Assembly (NCBI GenBank): GCA_043803815.1
Contig: JAZDJR010000007.1
Location: 1 to 21,024 of the forward strand
DNA: 21,024 nt
Origin: Candidatus Micrarchaeota archaeon
Lineage (GTDB): Archaea > Iainarchaeota > Iainarchaeia > Iainarchaeales > JAGVWC01
Reading direction: 5' to 3'
Shown here: piece after piece, positions 11,315 through 19,633 of the stretch
How positions within the stretch are numbered: position 1 is the first letter of the stretch
Layout: the number at the start of each line of letters is the position of its first letter
Notes under the pieces: model-generated
Database searches by the model: none
What the model saw: the letters and a program-made list of their open reading frames with translations, nothing else
Told to the model about the DNA's origin: nothing
Position numbers and translations under genes: made by a program

Positions 11315-11387
11315 GGGGGCGTAGCTCAGCTGGTAGAGCCCCGGCCTTTTAAGCCGGTTGTCGTGGGTTCGAGCCCCATCGCCCTCG
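11315..11387 (+). tRNA. tRNA-Lys (TTT)
   Basis: Cloverleaf: acceptor GGGGGCG/CGCCCTC, anticodon arm CCGGC-CTTTTAA-GCCGG, T-loop TTCGAGC, discriminator G. Confidence 0.95.
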
Positions 11388-11483
11388 TTTTGTTTTTCTT
11401 TCCAAAAAAGAAAAGCAAAACAAAATTGGATATTGGTTTGGAAAATTATCCAATAACAAGGAATTTTTGCAAAACAAAAAATA

Positions 11484-11555
11484 GGGCGCGTAGCTCAGCG
11501 GTAGAGCACTCGGCTCTTAACCGAGGTGTCGAGGGTTCGATCCCCTCCGCGCTCG
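11484..11555 (+). tRNA. tRNA-Lys (CTT)
   Basis: Cloverleaf: acceptor GGGCGCG/CGCGCTC, anticodon arm CTCGG-CTCTTAA-CCGAG, T-loop TTCGATC, discriminator G. Confidence 0.96.
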
Positions 11556-11568
11556 CTTCACTTTTCAA

Positions 11569-12075: not shown

Positions 12076-12175
12076 TTGCTGAATCGGTTTTTTGGTTTAT
12101 TCCTGTTTTCTTGGGCGTTTCACCGGCAATGACGGGCTTGCAAAGCACCTTAACTGCAAAATTCGATTTGTTTTA

Positions 12176-12955
12176 ATGGTTCAAACGACTTATGGCGCAA
12201 TATCAGACTCGGAATTGCAAGAGCCGGTATTTTCACGTTTGCCAAGCGTTCCTTTGCCGGTACTTCATGAAAATTGTCCGACTGAATTGAATCCTGAACT
12301 GGCGTATTTTGTCGGATACTTTTTTGGCGACGGCGGACTTAAAGATGTAGAAAAATCGTTTCAAAAGACCGACCATCGAGAATACAAATTAATTATTGCC
12401 GACGAATTTGAATTGCAAATGAAACTTATTCAGCGGTTGTACGGTCGACTGTTTGGCGTTATTCCACCAATTCGGTATGAACGAATAGAAAAAGGCGAAA
12501 GAACGTTGTATATTAACCCGACTTCAAAGCGCGTTTATCTTTTTTTGACAACTGTTTTTGAACTTCCAAAGGGTTCCAAAACGTCCGATTTGCACATTCC
12601 AAAAGTTATTTGGTTCGCACCTCGGGAACTTCAAGCGTGGTTTTTGCGCGGTTTGTTTGATGCGGATGGGGACACGAGAGCGGTTGAAGCGGGTTTTCGT
12701 TCCGCACCGCGTGTGAAGTTGCGGATGAAATGCATTTCGTTTGTGCAGGAAGTGAAAATGCTTTTTGAGCAAGTGTTTAACATGCACGTAAACGGCCCCT
12801 ATTTTGATAAAAATAATGCGTCGGCGTACATTCAAATAGAACGATTTTCGGATATTTGTGAATTATCCAAAAATGTGCTATTTTTGCATCCAATTAAGCG
12901 CTGGCGGCTTACAAAGACTGCGGATTTTCTCTTGTTAAAGTCCAATGCTTTATAA
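12176..12955 (+). CDS. Free-standing two-motif LAGLIDADG (DOD-type) endonuclease family protein
   Basis: ELAYFVGYFFGDGGL and WFLRGLFDADG motifs plus PKGSK...IPK; no intein splicing termini. ATG at 12176 preferred over TTG at 12092. Confidence 0.88.
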   Translation: MVQTTYGAISDSELQEPVFSRLPSVPLPVLHENCPTELNPELAYFVGYFFGDGGLKDVEKSFQKTDHREYKLIIADEFELQMKLIQRLYGRLFGVIPPIRYERIEKGERTLYINPTSKRVYLFLTTVFELPKGSKTSDLHIPKVIWFAPRELQAWFLRGLFDADGDTRAVEAGFRSAPRVKLRMKCISFVQEVKMLFEQVFNMHVNGPYFDKNNASAYIQIERFSDICELSKNVLFLHPIKRWRLTKTADFLLLKSNAL

Positions 12956-12984: not shown

Positions 12985-13078
12985 GGGACTGTAGCTTAGC
13001 TGGGAAAGCATCCGGCTGAAGTGGCATTATCGTGCCTAAGTGACCGGAGGATCGGGAGTTCAAGTCTCCCCAGTCCCA
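12985..13078 (+). tRNA. tRNA-Phe (GAA) with a 21-nt intron at canonical 37/38 (13022-13042)
   Basis: Acceptor GGGACTG/CAGTCCC-A; anticodon arm TCCGG-CTGAAG[intron]A-CCGGA; intron hairpin GGCAT/GTGCC; BHB with one G-A mismatch in the central helix; TATA box TTTATAAATA at 12949-12958. Confidence 0.93.
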
Positions 13079-13117
13079 CTTCTTTTTTTATTTTTTTCAG
13101 AATCAGAAAATAAAATC

Positions 13118-13414: not shown

Positions 13415-14986
13415 TTATTTTTTTGAGGTTTTTTTGGGTTTCTTTTTTCGGATTTGTTTTTTTTGCCGTATCGGAAACAGTTTTTTGTTTTCAGCCGGCT
13501 TGCTGGTTGTGCTTCCCGTATTTTTCATTTGGGGAAACAAAATGACGTCTTTGATTGTGGCCTGGTTGGTCAAAAGCATTACAATGCGGTCGATTCCAAT
13601 GCCGAGTCCACCGGTTGGGGGCATTCCGTATTCGATAGATTTGATGAAATCTTCGTCTACGGGTTCTGCGGTTCCGCCGGCGCGTCCTTCGCCTGCTTGT
13701 TTTTCCAAGAATTTTCGTTGCAAAGCTGGGTCGTTGAGTTCGGAGTACGCGTTTGATATTTCCCAGCGGTTAATGTATCCTTCGAATCGTTCGATTAATT
13801 CTGGGTTATTGCGGTGGAGTTTGCAAAGCGGCGTGGTTTCTTTGGGGTAATCGATTAAAAATGCGGGCTGAACCAAGGTGCCTTCGCAAAGAGCCGCGAA
13901 TAATTCGGCAATTAATAATCCGCGGATTTTGGGGCCGTCGTATTCTGGAATGTGTTCTTTAACTAATTTTTCAAGTTCTTTATCGGTTAGCGTGGTAACA
14001 TCGATTTTGGCTATTTCTTTGAGCCCGTCAAGCATAGCAAGGCGTTTCCACGGCGGCTTCAAGTCGATTTCGATTCCTTGGTAATTGATTATTGTCGTGC
14101 CCAGTACTTTTTGGGCGATAAACGCAATGGCGTTTTCGGTGAATCGCATCACGTCTTCGTAGTCCCAGTAGGCAGCATAGCTTTCCATGCTGGTGAATTC
14201 GGGATTGTGGGTTTTGTCGATGTCTTCGTTGCGAAAATTGTGGCCGATGGTGTAAACTTTTTCCATTCCACCGACAATTAGGCGTTTCAAATAAAGTTCA
14301 GGGGATACGCTGAGAAATAAGTCTTGTTTTAGCGCGTTGGAAAACGTTTTGAAGGGTTTGGCATTGGCCCCCCCGTACACGGGTTGTAACAGCGGAATTT
14401 CCACTTCGATGAATCCTTGTTGTTCCAAGTATTCGCGCATGGCGGAAATAATTTGACTGCGTGTTTCAAATACTTTGCGGACTTCGGGGTTTATGGCTAA
14501 ATCCAAGTAGCGTTGGCGGTAACGCGTTTCCACATCCGATAATCCGTGCCATTTTTCGGGCAACGGCAAAACGCTCTTGCCTAAAATTTGGAGTTCGGAA
14601 ACGAGTATGGTGATTTCGCCGCGCCGGGTTCGGACTACACGCCCATAAGCGCCGACAAAATCGCCGGCATCAAGCAAAGTGGCGAGTTCGTTGCTTTGGG
14701 GTTTTGTTTCGTTTTCTTTGATTTGGAACTGGATTTTCCCGGTTTGGTCGTGTACGTCTAAAAAGGATAATTTTCCAAAGCTTCGGATCGTCATTAGTCT
14801 TCCGCACGCGCGAACTTGGATTTTAGTTTCTTCGCCGTTAATAAGTTTGGAGAACTGTTCGTGGATTTGCTTGGCGGTGTGCGTTCGTTCGAATTTGTAG
14901 GGATAGGGGGTTATTCCCATTTTTCGGATTTGTTCCAGATGCGCCAATTTGCTTTGAATTAGGTCTTGTTCGGCCATGTCCATCAA
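13415..14986 (-). CDS. lysS: Lysyl-tRNA synthetase, class II
   Basis: OB-fold N-terminus, LPEKWHGL, RYRQRYLDL, PELYLKRLIVGG, FRNEDID.THNPEFT (motif 2), ERFE, NAYSELNDP, YGMPPTGGLGIGIDR (motif 3); Lys-rich C-terminal tail. Confidence 0.97.
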   Translation of the reverse strand: MMDMAEQDLIQSKLAHLEQIRKMGITPYPYKFERTHTAKQIHEQFSKLINGEETKIQVRACGRLMTIRSFGKLSFLDVHDQTGKIQFQIKENETKPQSNELATLLDAGDFVGAYGRVVRTRRGEITILVSELQILGKSVLPLPEKWHGLSDVETRYRQRYLDLAINPEVRKVFETRSQIISAMREYLEQQGFIEVEIPLLQPVYGGANAKPFKTFSNALKQDLFLSVSPELYLKRLIVGGMEKVYTIGHNFRNEDIDKTHNPEFTSMESYAAYWDYEDVMRFTENAIAFIAQKVLGTTIINYQGIEIDLKPPWKRLAMLDGLKEIAKIDVTTLTDKELEKLVKEHIPEYDGPKIRGLLIAELFAALCEGTLVQPAFLIDYPKETTPLCKLHRNNPELIERFEGYINRWEISNAYSELNDPALQRKFLEKQAGEGRAGGTAEPVDEDFIKSIEYGMPPTGGLGIGIDRIVMLLTNQATIKDVILFPQMKNTGSTTSKPAENKKLFPIRQKKQIRKKKPKKTSKK

Positions 14987-15027
14987 TTAGAAAAGGAAAC
15001 GATTTTTTAATTGGACTTTTTTTTCGT

Positions 15028-15771
15028 TTATTGGTATGCTTCTTCGATTTTGCGGATTTCGATTCCGTTTTCCCCGATTTGGATGGGGTGCAGGTCTTCG
15101 GAGTGCTTGGTGGCGCGCATTTTGCGGATGTGGAGGGTGCGGTTGGCCTGGGTTCCGACGCCCATGTAATGGAGCAGGATGACTCCGTCGACGACGTATT
15201 CTTCGACTCCGAATTTTCCGAATCGGTTGGAGGTTTCGTCGATTTCGCTGGTCATGATGGAGGTGACTCCGGTGCGTGCCAGCAAATAGGATATTTTCAG
15301 GACAGCTTTTCGGATTTCGTTTTCGTTTTCATAGTTGAATCCCAGCGCGGGTATCGAGTCGATGACGACGCGTTTGGCGTTTATTTTTTTGGCGATGCGC
15401 ATGATTTCAAGCAGCAGTTTGTCCAGGTCGAATCCGGTGACGGGCAGGGAAAATTGTTCGTCGCTGGGTATTCCTATTTTGACAATCGACCCGTCGATGA
15501 TATATAATAGGTTTCGCTGTTCGAGTTCGTGCAGGTCCCATCCGAACCGCAGCATGTCTTGGCGGATGAGTTCGGGTCTTTCGTCCAGTGTTACGTATAT
15601 TCCCGATTCGTTGAATTTTTTGGCGCCGTTGTATAAATATTGGAGTCCAAAGATGGTTTTGCCGGTTCCGGTGGCGCCGCTAACCAGTACGCTTCGTCCT
15701 TCGGGAAAGCCGCCTTCCATTAGTTCGTCCAGTCCGGTTATTCCTGTTTTGGTGCGGTTGGGGTTGTTCAT
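15028..15771 (-). CDS. Single-domain KaiC-like (RAD55/RecA-superfamily) ATPase
   Basis: TGITGLDELMEGGFP, Walker A GATGTGKT, YVTLDE, RVVIDS, EEYVVDGVI, IRKMRATKH. Confidence 0.93.
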   Translation of the reverse strand: MNNPNRTKTGITGLDELMEGGFPEGRSVLVSGATGTGKTIFGLQYLYNGAKKFNESGIYVTLDERPELIRQDMLRFGWDLHELEQRNLLYIIDGSIVKIGIPSDEQFSLPVTGFDLDKLLLEIMRIAKKINAKRVVIDSIPALGFNYENENEIRKAVLKISYLLARTGVTSIMTSEIDETSNRFGKFGVEEYVVDGVILLHYMGVGTQANRTLHIRKMRATKHSEDLHPIQIGENGIEIRKIEEAYQ

Positions 15772-15884
15772 GCTACCTGTATTATTGGCGGTTTCTGGTT
15801 TAATAAGCTTGAGCCAAGCCGGTGCTCGGCGGCCGCATACGTCGTCCCATCTGGCGATTGGACAGCGATATTTTTTTTAGCCAT
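15768..15884 (-). CDS. Putative 38-aa ORF translationally coupled between the PRTase and the KaiC-like gene
   Basis: MAKKNIAVQSPDGTTYAAAEHRLGSSLLNQKPPIIQVA; GAGG upstream; its start overlaps the end of the PRTase gene and its TGA overlaps the KaiC ATG (ATGA). Confidence 0.45.
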   Translation of the reverse strand: MAKKNIAVQSPDGTTYAAAEHRLGSSLLNQKPPIIQVA

Positions 15885-16542
15885 CCGTTTCCTCGCCGCT
15901 TTCGCGGGCTGCTTTGTTTTTATCCTTTTCTTCGTTTGGTTCGTTGTTCGGCAATTTTTCGTAAAAGTCTACCTTTGCCCCGTTGTTGTATTCTTCGGAA
16001 CTGAATGATTTGTTTGTATTCCGACCACGAGTTACTTTGTGGCTGACCGCGGCAAAAAAATCGGGGTCTTTTCCTTTGTATCGGGGCCTTTTTAGCAATG
16101 TAGCGGTTCGAATTTGGCTTTTTTTCAATCCGTTATCGACAAGGTATCGCATTGCAGCATCAAGGGTTTGTCCGCTTCCTACAACATCATCGACTAATAA
16201 TATTCGTTCTTGGGGTGTTACTGGTTCTTGGAGTCGTTTTGTTATGCGCGGTTTTCTTATTTTGTTGATTGTTCTGAAAAGCGGGACTGAAACTGATTGG
16301 GTGCGCGCAAAAAAAGCGGGGAATCGTTTCCATAATCGGTGGGCCAATTGGTTGTTGGAGCGGGATAATCGTATTTTTTGGATTGGGATTTGCAAATCGT
16401 TTTGTAGCAGGCGTGCAACGGGTTCCCCGTCACGGGCGATAAAAACGATTTGGGTCGGCTTAAATCCGCTTTCATTGATTTGTTGCGTTAATTTTTGGGT
16501 TAAGGCAAGTACTTCGGCTTTGGTCAAATAATCGTTTGGCAT
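15877..16542 (-). CDS. Type I phosphoribosyltransferase-fold protein (purine PRTase-like)
   Basis: IVFIARDG and the PRPP-binding loop ILLVDDVVGSGQTL, IRTATL, PDFF; basic insertion and charged tail. Confidence 0.85.
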   Translation of the reverse strand: MPNDYLTKAEVLALTQKLTQQINESGFKPTQIVFIARDGEPVARLLQNDLQIPIQKIRLSRSNNQLAHRLWKRFPAFFARTQSVSVPLFRTINKIRKPRITKRLQEPVTPQERILLVDDVVGSGQTLDAAMRYLVDNGLKKSQIRTATLLKRPRYKGKDPDFFAAVSHKVTRGRNTNKSFSSEEYNNGAKVDFYEKLPNNEPNEEKDKNKAARESGEETDG

Positions 16543-16554
16543 TGATGGTTCGCC

Positions 16555-18408
16555 CTATTCTCGTTTGGCGCTTTTGACGCCTTTTATTTTTTTGATTTCG
16601 TTGATGGTATTTTCGAGTTGTTTTGGGTTTTTTGTTTTGACGTTAAATTCGCATTGGACGCCGTTGTTTTCGGTTTTGGTTGTGGTGCTCGTGATTTTGT
16701 ATTTGTGATGGGAAAGCAGGGTAAGGATTTCCGCAATCGTGCTCGGGTTTTGGTGGGTGTTGACGCTGATAGTGGCGTTGAATTCGCCTTTGGGGAATTG
16801 GTCGTTGGTCAGCGCGATTTTTTTGGTTTCGGGCACCTGTTTCATGTTTTCGCAGTCTGTGCGGTGAATCGTTATTTTTCGTTTGGTTGTTTTGTAGCCG
16901 ATGACGTCGTCGCCGGGCAATGGGCTGCAACATTTGGCCAGCAGGATATGCCGCTGGCTTTTTTTGGATAATTGGGCTGTTTTGTTTTTTTTCGGGGGTT
17001 TGGCGGATTTGGATTCGCGTTGGAGAAAAAGCGCGGCGCGGATTTTTTGTTTGGCCTTTTCGGTTTTGACAAAGGATAGCCATTGTCGTTTGGGGGTTTG
17101 ATGGGGGCTGGTGGTGATTTCGATGACGTCTCCTGTTTCCAGTTCGTGGTTTAGGGGAACCAGTTTTCCGTTGACTTTGGATTTTTCGCAGGTTTGCCCG
17201 AGCTGGGTGTGGACCGCGAATGCAAAATCAAGGCAGGTGGCTCCGCGGGGTAGCTGAATCAGTTCATATTTTGGGCTTAGCGCCAGAATCTGATTTTTTT
17301 CAAATTGGATGGAAAGAGTCTGGATGAGATCGCGGTTTTTTTCCTGCCCCATCCATTCGGTGATTTGTTTGGCAACGGATAAGCCTGGGTCGAATTGGGG
17401 GTCTTTGGCGAATTGTTTGTATTGCCAGTGTGCGGCCAGGCCGTTTTCGGCTTCTTTGTGCATGGCCCATGTTCGTACCTGGACTTCGTAGGGGTTTTTG
17501 TTCCATTTTACGTCGATGTGCAGGGATTGGTAGCCTGATTTTTTGGGTTTGGCGATGTAATCGGTGTAGCTTCCGGGGATTTCGTCGAATTCGTTTTGGA
17601 TGGCGCTTGCGATTTGGTAGCATTCGGGAATCGAATTGCAGATGATGCGGCCGGCGATTGAGTCGTTAATTTCGTCGAGTTTTTTATTTTGTTCCTGCAT
17701 TTTTTTGTGGATTCGGTACAGGTTTTTTACCCTGGAAAAAACAAGCGCTTTGAAGTTGTGTTTGTTCAGAATTTTTTTGAGCTGGGTTTCGAATTCTTTT
17801 GCTTTTTCCTGTCGTTGGTGGCGTTTTTCGTTGAGCTGGCGTTTGAGCTGCGAATAGGTTTCGGGTTCGAGTTGTTTAAATGCCAAGTCTTCCAGTTCCC
17901 ATCGGAACTGTTGCAGCCCCAGTTTGGCGCTTAATGGCACTAGCACGTTTAGCGCGATTTTGGCTTTTTCCTGGTTGGCGGGAGTTACGGCGGCAAATCG
18001 CAGTTCGATGAGTGCGCGGCCGAGTTGAATAACAATGGCACGAATATCATGCGCGGTTGCAATGAGCAATTTGGAAAGCGTTTCGCTGGGAACAATATCG
18101 GCATTTTTTTGGAGAACCGCGGTGATTTTTATGGTTGCTTTGGCCAAGTCGATGATTTGCGGGTCGAATTGGCGCACTAATGAGTCGTCCAAAACGGGTT
18201 TGATGAGTGAGGCGCAAAGGGTTTCTTCGCCAAAGCCGTTTTCAAGCAATAATCCTGCGGTGTCCAGTGCGAGCTGGTAGCTGGCCGGTGTAATGGCGGG
18301 AGAATCGAGTTTTTGCAGGGCCAGTTCAAGAGTTGCCGTGTGGCTATCGGGCAATTGTTTTTTGAACCTACTTTTAAGTTCCGTAGCGGTATAGTGTTCG
18401 TATTGCAT
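16555..18408 (-). CDS. Long RelA/SpoT homologue ((p)ppGpp synthetase): degenerate HD, SYNTH, TGS, ZFD and ACT domains
   Basis: WELEDLAF, SRVKNLYRIHKKM, DYIAKPKKSGYQSLH, EVQVRTWAMHKEAENGLAAHWQYK (SYNTH); LPRGATCLDFAFAVHT (TGS); AKCCSPLPGD...IHRTDC (ZFD); C-terminal ACT. ATG at 18408 preferred. Confidence 0.93.
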   Translation of the reverse strand: MQYEHYTATELKSRFKKQLPDSHTATLELALQKLDSPAITPASYQLALDTAGLLLENGFGEETLCASLIKPVLDDSLVRQFDPQIIDLAKATIKITAVLQKNADIVPSETLSKLLIATAHDIRAIVIQLGRALIELRFAAVTPANQEKAKIALNVLVPLSAKLGLQQFRWELEDLAFKQLEPETYSQLKRQLNEKRHQRQEKAKEFETQLKKILNKHNFKALVFSRVKNLYRIHKKMQEQNKKLDEINDSIAGRIICNSIPECYQIASAIQNEFDEIPGSYTDYIAKPKKSGYQSLHIDVKWNKNPYEVQVRTWAMHKEAENGLAAHWQYKQFAKDPQFDPGLSVAKQITEWMGQEKNRDLIQTLSIQFEKNQILALSPKYELIQLPRGATCLDFAFAVHTQLGQTCEKSKVNGKLVPLNHELETGDVIEITTSPHQTPKRQWLSFVKTEKAKQKIRAALFLQRESKSAKPPKKNKTAQLSKKSQRHILLAKCCSPLPGDDVIGYKTTKRKITIHRTDCENMKQVPETKKIALTNDQFPKGEFNATISVNTHQNPSTIAEILTLLSHHKYKITSTTTKTENNGVQCEFNVKTKNPKQLENTINEIKKIKGVKSAKRE

Positions 18409-18511
18409 TATGAAACTACAAACCGAAAACATATTTAGGCTTTGGATTGGGTTTTTGGTTTTTTGCCTATCGGTGTTTAAATACTGTAGTTGCTTTTTTA
18501 TTTTGTTGATT
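18409..18511. promoter_or_regulatory. Divergent promoter region between the RSH and CBS-HPF genes
   Basis: 103-bp AT-rich gap; TTTAAATA at 18476-18483 (+) and CTAAATAT near 18431-18438 (-), each about 25-30 nt before an ATG. Confidence 0.55.
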
Positions 18512-19633
18512 ATGAACTCTAAAATAGTGGCGTCCGATTTGGTTTCTCAGAATTTTATTTCCGCCAAGGGCTCGGATTTCTTGTCCCAATTGGCCGGCGT
18601 TTTTTTGAAAAAAAATCAGAACCATGCCTTGGTGTTTGACGAATCGGGTGTATATTTGGGCGCGACAACCAAGGATTTTTTGCTGAAAAAACATACGGAC
18701 TTTGCGGGGGTCAAGCTCAAATCCGTTGTCAAGTCGACGCCGGTTTTGTATGCGGACGATTCCTTGGTAAATATTGCCGGCCTGATGTTTAGTTCCGAAG
18801 CGCGCGTGCTTCCGGTGTTTGAAGGCAAAAAACTGCTTGGCGCGGTGTTTGCCAGCGACGTGATTAGGCAAGTCGAGCGCCTTGATTCCGCGGGCTCTTT
18901 GCATGTGTCGGATGTCGCGTCTTTTCCGTCGACGATTATTTTGGAAACTGCGTCGGTTGAGCAGGCCATTTCTTTGATGCGGGAAAAAAAAGTCAATCGC
19001 CTGCCGCTGGTTTCATCTAGTGGAAAATTGACGGGCTTGTTTAGCTTTTCGGATTTGATGAAAAACGTGGCGTTGCACGAGCATACTCGTCCGCGCGGAA
19101 AAGGAAGCGAAAGTGCGCGGAGCGCGGATTCCGGCGTTTTGCAGTCTCCGATAAAATCGTTTGCCTCAAGCGAACCATTTGTGTGCCAGCCCAATGATTC
19201 CATGTCCGCGGTGCTTTCCAAAATGGGAAAAAACGGCGTGTCAAGCCTCGTGGTGGTTGACCAACTCTCCAAGCCCAGCGGAATTATTACGACGCGCGAT
19301 TTGCTGAAGCTTTTGGTGAACTCCAAGGAAACCAAGCGCAACATTTCGTTTGTGGACAAGCCGGCTTTGGATGAAATCGACGGCGCGGTCTTGGACAAGA
19401 CTGTTGCGGATTTCTTCGACAAGATGTCCGTGCGTTTTTCTTCGGAATTGCTTTTGACGGTTCATTTCAAAAAAGAGCTGGCAAAAGGAACCCACCAGAT
19501 TCACGATGTTCACTGCCACATGAACGGTCCCGGGCTGAAACTTTCTTCCAGCGCGCAGAACTGGAAACTGTTAAGCGCGGTACAAGATGCGCTTAAAGCT
19601 TTGCAAAGCGAAGTGCGGAAAAAGAAGCGGTAA
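18512..19633 (+). CDS. Four-CBS-domain protein with C-terminal HPF/RaiA-like domain (archaeal hibernation-factor-like)
   Basis: Four CBS repeats (HALVFD..GVYLG; RVLPV...KLLG; RLPLV...GKLTG; SSLVVV....PSGIITTRDLL), then ~90 aa with beta-alpha-beta-beta-beta-alpha pattern ending WKLLSAVQDALKALQSEVRKKK. ATG at 18512 preferred. Confidence 0.8.
   Translation: MNSKIVASDLVSQNFISAKGSDFLSQLAGVFLKKNQNHALVFDESGVYLGATTKDFLLKKHTDFAGVKLKSVVKSTPVLYADDSLVNIAGLMFSSEARVLPVFEGKKLLGAVFASDVIRQVERLDSAGSLHVSDVASFPSTIILETASVEQAISLMREKKVNRLPLVSSSGKLTGLFSFSDLMKNVALHEHTRPRGKGSESARSADSGVLQSPIKSFASSEPFVCQPNDSMSAVLSKMGKNGVSSLVVVDQLSKPSGIITTRDLLKLLVNSKETKRNISFVDKPALDEIDGAVLDKTVADFFDKMSVRFSSELLLTVHFKKELAKGTHQIHDVHCHMNGPGLKLSSSAQNWKLLSAVQDALKALQSEVRKKKR

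Follow-up and report, generated by a model that had tools for sequence, protein, structure and literature searches.

The contig JAZDJR010000007.1 of a Candidatus Micrarchaeota archaeon (assembly GCA_043803815.1; order Iainarchaeales, phylum Iainarchaeota) carries a gene for a long RelA/SpoT homolog (RSH), here termed R1, and the same genome encodes a second RSH, R2, in which the opposite active site is kept. The entire 21-kb contig (21,024 nucleotides, referred to below as the window), from a genome of 1.08 Mb and 85.6% completeness, was analysed. The best-supported new point is an order-wide RelA/SpoT-like pair in archaea. We favour, with a probability of roughly 55%, the interpretation that R1 and R2 together constitute an archaeal alarmone system and that R1 lies within a preserved block of genes for translation and transcription. 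In the proposed mechanism, the TGS, zinc-finger and ACT domains would anchor R1 to the ribosome, and R1 would sense the 3' end of uncharged tRNA through an invariant TGS histidine and would make (p)ppGpp from GTP or GDP and ATP when uncharged tRNA accumulates. R2, encoded elsewhere in the genome, would remove the alarmone. The preserved block would comprise the genes for an HPF/HibA-type hibernation factor, triosephosphate isomerase (TIM), the RSH, a KaiC-like ATPase, lysyl-tRNA synthetase (LysRS), SerRS, Trm56 and TFIIE.

Reciprocal active sites in two archaeal RSHs

The Pfam models HD_4 (42.8 bits), RelA_SpoT (PF04607; 118.7 bits against a cut-off of 27), TGS (60.5 bits) and ACT_4 (49 bits) all matched R1, and its best solved relatives were ribosome-bound enzymes, namely the bifunctional mycobacterial Rel (8fr8_I, E = 2.7e-84), which has the same domain order, and E. 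coli RelA (5iqr_8, E = 3.2e-80). Unlike in bifunctional Rel, the hydrolase motif LLHDxxED was replaced by LIKPVLD in the window, and R1 was therefore not regarded as bifunctional; other DPANN-labelled RSHs of about 640 aa (Woesearchaeota or Nanoarchaeota at NCBI) resemble Rel in that they mostly keep both active sites. The synthetase motifs of R1 (RxK, D..R, YQSLH, EVQVRT and AAHWxYK) were intact. Among 38 orthologs, Arg234, Lys236, Asp257, Arg262, Glu316 and Gln318 were invariant, as were the zinc-finger residues Cys501, Cys502, His523 and Cys527, which belong to a CCxPxPGD...H...C segment that aligned with the zinc-finger region of RelA and Rel and was followed by the ACT domain. His408 of the TGS domain aligned with His432 of E. 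coli RelA, the residue that we take to read the 3' end of an uncharged tRNA. An acidic xxDD was found in 26 of 39 R1 sequences, at the position where 22 of 27 bacterial sequences have RxKD and E. coli RelA has EFDD; RxKD was present in none of the 39, and R1 of the window reads SYTD. The charge reversal between xxDD and RxKD presumably separates RelA from Rel. By its motifs, R1 is a RelA-like, synthetase-only long RSH, for which we infer activation by the ribosome and deacylated tRNA and (p)ppGpp as the product. The sequence-only reading of the window had presented this gene as a full-architecture RSH, unusual for archaea. Its unusual occurrence was borne out. The architecture had been overstated: the HD fold and the synthetase, TGS, zinc-finger and ACT domains are all there, but the HD domain has a degenerate motif and most of the alpha-helical domain is missing.

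A scan of genome contigs with R1 returned seven loci. R2 is a paralog of 561 aa encoded on contig C29 of the same genome (G000; L002:838-2523, minus strand; L070). It showed a strong HD domain (HD_4, 144.9 bits) and a ruined synthetase site, in which EIQIRT has become KVYIAT, and no Pfam zinc-finger or ACT match was obtained past its TGS domain. The motifs were counted in an alignment of 108 representative RSHs. The hydrolase motif HDxxED was found in none of 39 R1 sequences, in all 18 R2 sequences and in 24 of 27 bacterial long RSHs. The synthetase and TGS motifs were universal in R1 (ExQ, RxK, D..R and the TGS histidine, 39/39 each) and in the bacterial set (27/27 each), and were rare or missing in R2 (ExQ 0/18, RxK 2/18, D..R 0/18, TGS histidine 1/18). 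One row, the 460-aa form of family f3 (L087), was tallied separately, with a dead HD site and a live synthetase site. In that family (L087 and L088) the single RSH, 460-466 aa long, adjoins the LeuRS gene and stops soon past the TGS domain, and a close ortholog of the KaiC-like ATPase described below is lacking (best E about 1e-45). To judge from these motifs, R1 and R2 are likely to be active alarmone enzymes, and the sequence comparisons place both of them under clear purifying selection in the order.

The division of labour resembles that of RelA and SpoT in Beta- and Gammaproteobacteria, with reciprocal loss leaving R1 with a pseudo-HD and an active synthetase site and R2 with an active HD and a dead synthetase site. 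With E. coli RelA (5iqr), R1 shares the TGS histidine, the zinc finger and the ACT domain, and 26 of the 39 R1 sequences share the acidic motif as well. R1 differs from it in being about 100 aa shorter, with most of the alpha-helical domain gone. The archaeal pair differs from proteobacterial RelA and SpoT also in the C-terminal part of R2, in the archaeal ribosome of the host and in an apparently independent origin, R1 and R2 grouping with archaeal bifunctional RSHs, apart from the sampled bacteria.

In the order, sampled by 61 related genomes, R1-type matches (E<=1.1e-80) were found in 48 genomes and R2-type matches in 30, three of these with in-frame stops. Across the phylum, 153 of 215 genomes gave an RSH match at E<=1e-20. 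Seven families tallied jointly, among which the kinship labels place the RSH-less family f30 of the same order and the families of another order, had such a match in one of 38 genomes, and in family f3 the matches, present in 7 of 22 genomes, were all weak. The proteins closest to R1 carry the NCBI labels Ca. Micrarchaeota and Ca. Diapherotrites. A tree was built by an IQ-TREE quick search (LG+C20) from 64 hand-picked rows of the 108, with SH-aLRT values alone as support; its bacterial rows were the best database matches, with no named RelA among them and with proteobacterial RelA left out save for one Burkholderiaceae locus. The 45 archaeal rows split from the 19 bacterial ones with an SH-aLRT value of 100. 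R1 and R2 each formed one clade (94 and 100, respectively), and within the archaeal group one bifunctional set branched first, and the next node (97) was an unresolved trifurcation into a second bifunctional set, R2 and R1. FastTree, run on all 108 rows, agreed. Such a topology would be expected if a bifunctional archaeal Rel had been duplicated and the two copies had then lost opposite activities. A phylogeny able to tell an archaeal clade from a recent transfer had been proposed in the sequence-only reading; by this tree and by its spread through 48 of the 61 genomes, R1 is not a recent transfer and appears to have been inherited vertically across an order of DPANN-type archaea with genomes of about 1 Mb.

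Genes around R1 and R2

Up to 20 kb around R1 was taken from 40 relatives, which gave 41 loci with the window; open reading frames (ORFs) were called crudely, as the longest non-overlapping frames, and then clustered. The gene for the KaiC-like ATPase was present in the R1 flank in 35 of the 41 loci, in 34 of them on the R1 strand. In 21 loci it came directly 3' of R1 in the same orientation, 18 of these having gaps of 34-82 bp, and the adjacency persisted at about 33-40% RSH identity and across many families. LysRS abutted KaiC in 17 of the 35 KaiC-bearing loci (class I in 12, class II in 5). The recurrence of KaiC beside archaeal RSHs, suggested as a check by the sequence-only reading, was thus observed. 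In about ten loci (L044-L054, L058, L060) a four-gene cassette stood between the RSH and KaiC genes, consisting of two MacB/FtsX-type permeases, an ABC ATPase-like gene and a CARDB-domain protein. R2 was also found in the company of aminoacyl-tRNA synthetase genes: ArgRS lay immediately upstream in 16 of 20 R2 loci (L070-L089), and LeuRS with a bacterial-type editing domain and AlaRS were found in 13 and 12 of the flanks, respectively. With LysRS near R1, both RSH paralogs are therefore embedded among such genes.

Two controls were applied to the gene order. A small synteny control looked in five distant, near-complete genomes for genes that the window has 12-16 kb from the RSH. The window's ArsR-like gene, at 12 kb, had its matches 51-439 kb away from the RSH in those five (they are confined to the N-terminal winged helix-turn-helix and possibly represent paralogs). 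The DPH6-fusion and Dus genes were 629 kb apart in the sole genome that has both, and one query gave no match. In all five genomes KaiC lay within 6 kb of R1. KaiC stayed near R1 while the flanking genes scattered, which argues for a specifically preserved block and not for general colinearity. The other control consisted of 80 metagenomic RSH loci, obtained in a scan with an alignment of bifunctional DPANN-labelled RSHs that was meant for other archaeal lineages. The scan patterns were too universal, so that these loci serve only as a mostly bacterial control; all 24 loci that were measured were bacterial-type, with open frames of at least 714 aa (L090 is cut by the contig end). KaiC, HPF, TIM, ArgRS and LeuRS were near the RSH in none of the 80.

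The KaiC-like protein matched PF06745 with 261.6 bits (cut-off 26.6), its translation contains the P-loop motif GATGTGKT, and its nearest PDB entry was 2zts (PH0186, E = 5.7e-65), followed by KaiC CI domains. It is not the circadian double-domain KaiC of about 500 aa (TIGR02655, 171.6 bits against a cut-off of 546) but a protein of one RecA-like domain and 247 aa, as are the PH0186-type archaeal ATPases. Its conserved pairing with LysRS and RSH was not found among the listed papers that cite the work of Makarova et al. on KaiC-like hubs. The protein is 50-80% identical among 33 orthologs, and with a match in 205 of the 215 genomes of the phylum (E<=1e-40) it is a highly conserved core gene. 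The LysRS matched TIGR00499 (lysS_bact) with 573.4 bits (cut-off 427.6), as well as PF01336 and PF00152. No match to class I LysRS (PF01921) was found in the genome at its stated completeness, and the class II enzyme was the sole LysRS found. The class II core match stops at residue 489, and the C-terminus beyond it (13415-13520) is a Lys/Arg-rich tail of about 35 residues. Class I (12 loci) and class II (5 loci) enzymes occupy the same slot after KaiC in different families, which looks like gene displacement in situ. From this arrangement, the KaiC-LysRS pairing may be a selected unit. R1 is probably co-transcribed with KaiC and a LysRS, and its expression would then be tied to both; that the RSH, KaiC and, where present, LysRS genes act as a functional unit is possible, with the odds somewhat against it. 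A complex prediction for R1 and the KaiC-like protein scored 0.00 and carries no weight either way.

On the other side of R1, the window holds a divergent gene whose product has four CBS stretches and a C-terminal HPF/RaiA-like domain. This domain gave 18.8 bits on Ribosomal_S30AE, under the gathering cut-off of 23.7, and 8 of 14 family members matched that model (best E = 7.9e-5). With phmmer the protein aligned colinearly and over its full length with 9sr9_H (E = 1.9e-24, 89.8 bits, residues 23-371 against 22-371), which confirmed the HPF part, weak by Pfam alone, and a profile of the HPF-like C-terminal domain matched the same chain (E = 9.4e-7). Entry 9SR9 is HibA of Pyrococcus abyssi with ATP (PMC13324472, Nature Communications 2026). 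According to the accessible parts of two papers, HibA of P. abyssi and T. barophilus (PMC13324472) is the same ribosome hibernation factor as AHA of H. volcanii (HVO_2384; PMC13728122), and stand-alone HPF/RaiA-like forms occur mostly in DPANN and Nitrososphaerales. By this alignment the window gene is a member of the HibA/AHA family, with which it shares the four CBS stretches, the C-terminal domain and a long loop between CBS3 and CBS4; the stand-alone forms of its relatives likewise match the DPANN forms noted in the accessible part of the HibA paper. It differs from the described members in its modest similarity to them (89.8 bits with P. abyssi HibA) and in lying divergently adjacent to a long RSH. 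A term search of the available text of the HibA paper gave no mention of ppGpp, neighbourhood or synteny, and the matching passages of the AHA paper do not mention RSH genes in archaea.

An HPF-like gene was upstream and divergent of R1 in 15 of the 41 loci, stand-alone (98-119 aa) in nine and CBS-fused in six. A profile search with the HPF-like domain detected the gene in 45 of the 61 genomes. Among the 40 genomes with both genes, it lay within 3 kb of R1 in 19, which span ten families, and on another contig or at least 18 kb away in the other 21. The recurrence of an HPF-type gene near the RSH, the sequence-only reading's second neighbourhood check, was therefore found in part of the genomes. 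In the window HibA and R1 stand back to back because the TIM gene is missing from the block in this genome. In the TIM slot upstream of the RSH, the enzyme of five loci (L030, L034, L039, L046, L048) is bacterial-type and about 250 aa long (PF00121, 223 bits), and 24 others have a short archaeal TIM of about 225 aa, apparently another displacement within the same block.

The spacer between HibA and R1 contains two TATA-like boxes, read from the sequence. The box TTTAAATA (18478-18485, plus strand) ends 26 nt before the HibA ATG, and TAAATAT (18432-18438, minus strand) ends 23 nt before the ATG of RSH Met9; both resemble what we take to be archaeal TATA boxes. A sigma-70 promoter and terminator scan, a model unsuited to archaea, gave no more sites than were found in shuffled sequences. 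The back-to-back arrangement would allow co-regulation, and HibA could share control elements with R1 in this genome. A functional tie between the two remains doubtful.

Between R1 and KaiC, the window has two further frames, both counted in the sequence-only reading as members of the gene run. The phosphoribosyltransferase (PRTase)-fold protein matched PF00156 (Pribosyltran; 56.8 bits, cut-off 26.3), contains the phosphoribosyl pyrophosphate (PRPP)-loop motif LLVDDVVGSGQT in its translation and carries a basic insert and an acidic tail. Its scores were below the cut-off of every purine, pyrimidine and adenine PRTase equivalog model (TIGR01203 HGPRTase, 30.8 against 150; NF040646, 17.2 against 200; adenine PRTase models, about 16 against at least 125), and in the nearest PDB entry, Sulfolobus GpT-1 (E = 1.2e-5), the PRPP loop alone aligned. 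A purine salvage function was rejected at the family level on these grounds. No ortholog was found in 60 relatives, and the gene was present in one of the 41 R1 loci, that of the window. A word-indexed search returned only the gene itself, and the best non-self match among 1.84 billion representatives had an E value of 5.1e-14 at 26% identity. Its GC content at third codon positions (0.42) was the lowest compared, against 0.51-0.63 for KaiC, RSH, HibA and LysRS. The gene reads as an orphan, a recent lineage-specific insertion between RSH and KaiC, and the role of alarmone effector that had been suggested for it found no footing in the relatives. For the micro-ORF, tblastn against 40 related loci gave chance-level matches only (best E = 0.55), and it was rejected as a gene for lack of conservation; in 18 loci the RSH-KaiC gap, at 34-82 bp, is too short to contain it. 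It is probably not a gene, and both insertions are regarded as local and outside the alarmone system. The Firmicute apt-relA-dtd...hisS-aspS arrangement (which we take to be that of B. subtilis and S. aureus) is similar in that a long RSH adjoins a PRTase gene and aminoacyl-tRNA synthetase genes, and 11 of the 80 metagenomic control loci had a weak class-IIb synthetase match 4-8 kb downstream of the RSH. It differs in that the PRTase of the window is not an Apt ortholog and is unique to this genome, and in the synthetases involved, which are LysRS and SerRS near R1 and ArgRS, LeuRS and AlaRS near R2.

Layout of the window

Features of the R1 locus in the window (positions of the whole contig)
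Feature	Positions	Strand	Basis or remark
Class II LysRS	13415-14986	minus	TIGR00499, Pfam
Single-domain KaiC-like ATPase	15028-15771	minus	PF06745
Micro-ORF, 38 aa	15768-15884	minus	open frame only
PRTase-fold gene, 221 aa	15877-16542	minus	PF00156
Long RSH R1, 617 aa from Met9	16555-18408	minus	Pfam, NCBIfam, structure alignment
R1 from alternative ATG at 18432, 625 aa	16555-18432	minus	
Divergent intergenic spacer, 103 bp	18409-18511		between the R1 and HibA starts
HibA/AHA-family 4xCBS-HPF gene, 373 aa	18512-19633	plus	open frame from 18410, likely start 18512

The ORF positions and spacing were as first described, with gaps of 41 bp between LysRS and KaiC and 12 bp between the PRTase gene and R1 and with overlaps of the micro-ORF by 4 nt with KaiC and by 8 nt with the PRTase gene. 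The gene identities proposed from the sequence were confirmed by Pfam and NCBIfam and, for the HPF part, by the match to P. abyssi HibA. The divergent spacer of 103 bp holds with the Met9 start of R1 and the CBS gene start at 18512, and not with other starts. The former fits the relatives, whose matches begin at about query residue 7-9, and the latter agrees with how relatives and P. abyssi HibA align. The archaeal context was upheld by TFIIE-alpha, aTrm56, diphthamide synthase and an archaeal SRP RNA on the contig.

Four tRNAs were found in the window. The LysRS gene is about 2 kb from two tRNA-Lys genes with UUU and CUU anticodons (11315-11556, plus strand). A 95-nt tRNA (12985-13079, plus strand), to which ARAGORN assigned a four-base anticodon and which scored 58 bits with the Rfam tRNA model, probably holds an archaeal tRNA intron. 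Between the tRNA-Lys genes and this tRNA is a free-standing LAGLIDADG-like ORF (12092-12955, plus strand), a 65% identical copy of which is present in L024. At the other end of the contig (132-2282, minus strand), a 716-aa fusion joins glutamine amidotransferase, asparagine-synthase and diphthamide-synthase domains. Long fusions of this type also occur in G017 and G040, and in G031 and G027 the diphthamide part is a separate frame of about 230 aa.

Alternative explanations and meaning

Several observations weigh against an alarmone system set in a preserved block. The alpha-helical domain between TGS and zinc finger, which bacterial RelA uses on the ribosome, is reduced in R1 to about 25 residues, compared with about 105 in E. 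coli RelA, and in the precomputed Pfam lists PF19296 (RelA_AH_RIS) was on none of the archaeal 590-650-aa matches and on most of the bacterial 700-760-aa matches. The archaeal ribosome, moreover, differs from the bacterial one, and the TIGR00691 (spoT_relA) score of R1, 435.1, is below the curated cut-off of 499.2. In five R1-only genomes of 91-99% completeness (G017, G018, G012, G040 and G028) the sole HD_4 match was the degenerate domain of R1 itself, so that an RSH-type hydrolase was not found in them; a rule that Atkinson et al. describe for bacteria has small alarmone synthetases occurring only together with a hydrolase. As for the block, the related genomes are not independent samples. 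TIM is located between HPF and RSH in most relatives and was upstream and divergent of R1 in 29 of the 41 loci, an HPF-like gene was present in five genomes without an RSH match, and Trm56/TFIIE, for which a connection to alarmones is not evident, were linked to R1 just as often as HPF, lying within 10 kb of it in 15 of the 41 loci as well. KaiC occurs at about 60-70% identity in the RSH-less family f30 and in another order, and in three of three f30 loci (L170-L172) it was directly followed by class II LysRS with no RSH. Since the KaiC-LysRS pair exists in a lineage without RSH, the RSH looks like an addition before an older pair. No RNA sequencing run with the locus was found, and one DNA run contained a small share of its sequence words.

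These last points would also fit an explanation in which R1 and R2 are a working pair and KaiC, LysRS and HibA are neighbours by retained ancestral order, with no shared regulation or pathway: KaiC and its LysRS partner manage without RSH, TIM is commoner in the flank than HPF and separates it from the RSH in most loci, Trm56/TFIIE are kept as often, HPF is elsewhere in 21 of the 40 genomes with both genes, and the genomes are related. Retained order alone would not lead one to expect operon-like RSH-KaiC gaps on one strand, an adjacency that outlasts such divergence of the RSH in many families, the scattering of genes outside the block in all five distant genomes, or the retention next to KaiC of a LysRS whatever its class, a pattern suggestive of selection for this arrangement. 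We consider this explanation rather unlikely. The opposite extreme goes beyond the preferred interpretation and takes up the dormancy switch of the sequence-only reading, in which (p)ppGpp or Ap4A would bind the PRTase and the CBS module of HibA directly and the KaiC-like ATPase would relay the signal to silence ribosomes. The shared 103-bp spacer, the HPF-type genes near R1 in 19 of 40 genomes and the ability of class II LysRS enzymes to make Ap4A speak for it, and the recurring RSH-KaiC and RSH-HPF linkage is the part of that proposal which stood. The PRTase and the micro-ORF dropped out of it, the former being an orphan unique to this genome, KaiC is also present in RSH-less lineages, nine of the 15 HPF-like genes near R1 lack a CBS module, and class I LysRS fills the slot at 12 loci. 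In its favour, CBS modules bind nucleotides, and that of P. abyssi HibA bound AMP, ADP and ATP; against it, the same module gave no isothermal titration calorimetry (ITC) heat signal with GTP or GMP, with ppGpp not among the ligands (PMC13324472). A switch wired to this extent is very unlikely.

The enzyme itself could be something other than a (p)ppGpp synthetase in vivo, making another nucleotide such as (p)ppApp or acting as a non-catalytic ribosome- or tRNA-binding factor. A substrate-side motif that is neither RxKD nor uniform, the missing alpha-helical domain and the genomes with R1 but no RSH-type hydrolase would suit this; the catalytic synthetase residues, invariant in 38-39 orthologs, and the presence, in roughly half of the genomes, of a dedicated hydrolase paralog whose HD site is intact would not, and the idea has a poor chance of being right. 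An assembly artefact, with a bacterial RSH fragment mis-binned or joined to an archaeal contig, might be suspected because the great majority of RSHs are bacterial and the class II LysRS, too, is of bacterial type. The order RSH, KaiC, then LysRS and/or Trm56-TFIIE, however, recurs in dozens of independent assemblies, including the one- and two-contig G018 and G017, so that a chimeric contig, raised as a worry by the sequence-only reading, is very unlikely. In addition, GC content is even along the window (0.39-0.49) and the RSH groups with archaeal RSHs; an artefact can practically be set aside. There remains the preferred interpretation of an archaeal alarmone pair with R1 in a preserved block. 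A stronger form of it, in which the order runs a ribosome-coupled stringent response with its own RelA/SpoT-like pair, derived by duplication from an archaeal bifunctional Rel and placed among aminoacyl-tRNA synthetase genes, with the synthetase in one operon with KaiC and LysRS and under divergent control shared with HibA, so that amino-acid or tRNA-charging status would set ribosome dormancy, is in our estimate unlikely.

The presence of RSHs in DPANN, through an annotation count of 2021, and the CBS-HPF family, through the work of 2026, were already known. In the accessible text, Atkinson et al. (2011) report no long RSH in archaea, and Li et al. (2021; PMC8407392) give RelA/SpoT annotations in 69.0% of Diapherotrites, 41.7% of Woesearchaeota, 21.3% of Pacearchaeota and 19.0% of Nanoarchaeota and predict, in one sentence, a bacterial origin of DPANN RelA/SpoT. 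Reviews, in the passages available, state that (p)ppGpp has not been found in archaea, and the accessible part of the 2026 archaeal hibernation paper (PMC13728122) states that such alarmones were not detected. In the literature searched, which left most subscription journals and supplements outside, no description was found of the R1/R2 split, of an RSH-KaiC-LysRS operon or of an RSH beside HibA. The order-wide RelA/SpoT-like pair, the shortened archaeal architecture, the setting among synthetase genes and the RSH-KaiC(-LysRS) unit next to HibA thus look new.

The RelA-like enzyme, present in nearly the whole order and here back to back with a hibernation gene, suggests that some archaea use the alarmone (p)ppGpp, and R1 and R2 provide concrete proteins with which to ask whether a stringent response exists in Archaea. 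R1 also raises the question of whether a RelA-type enzyme could read an archaeal ribosome without the alpha-helical domain. The pair would represent a second, independent case of a RelA/SpoT-style division of labour. If the ribosome-coupled archaeal stringent response proved true, (p)ppGpp would be a native archaeal second messenger.

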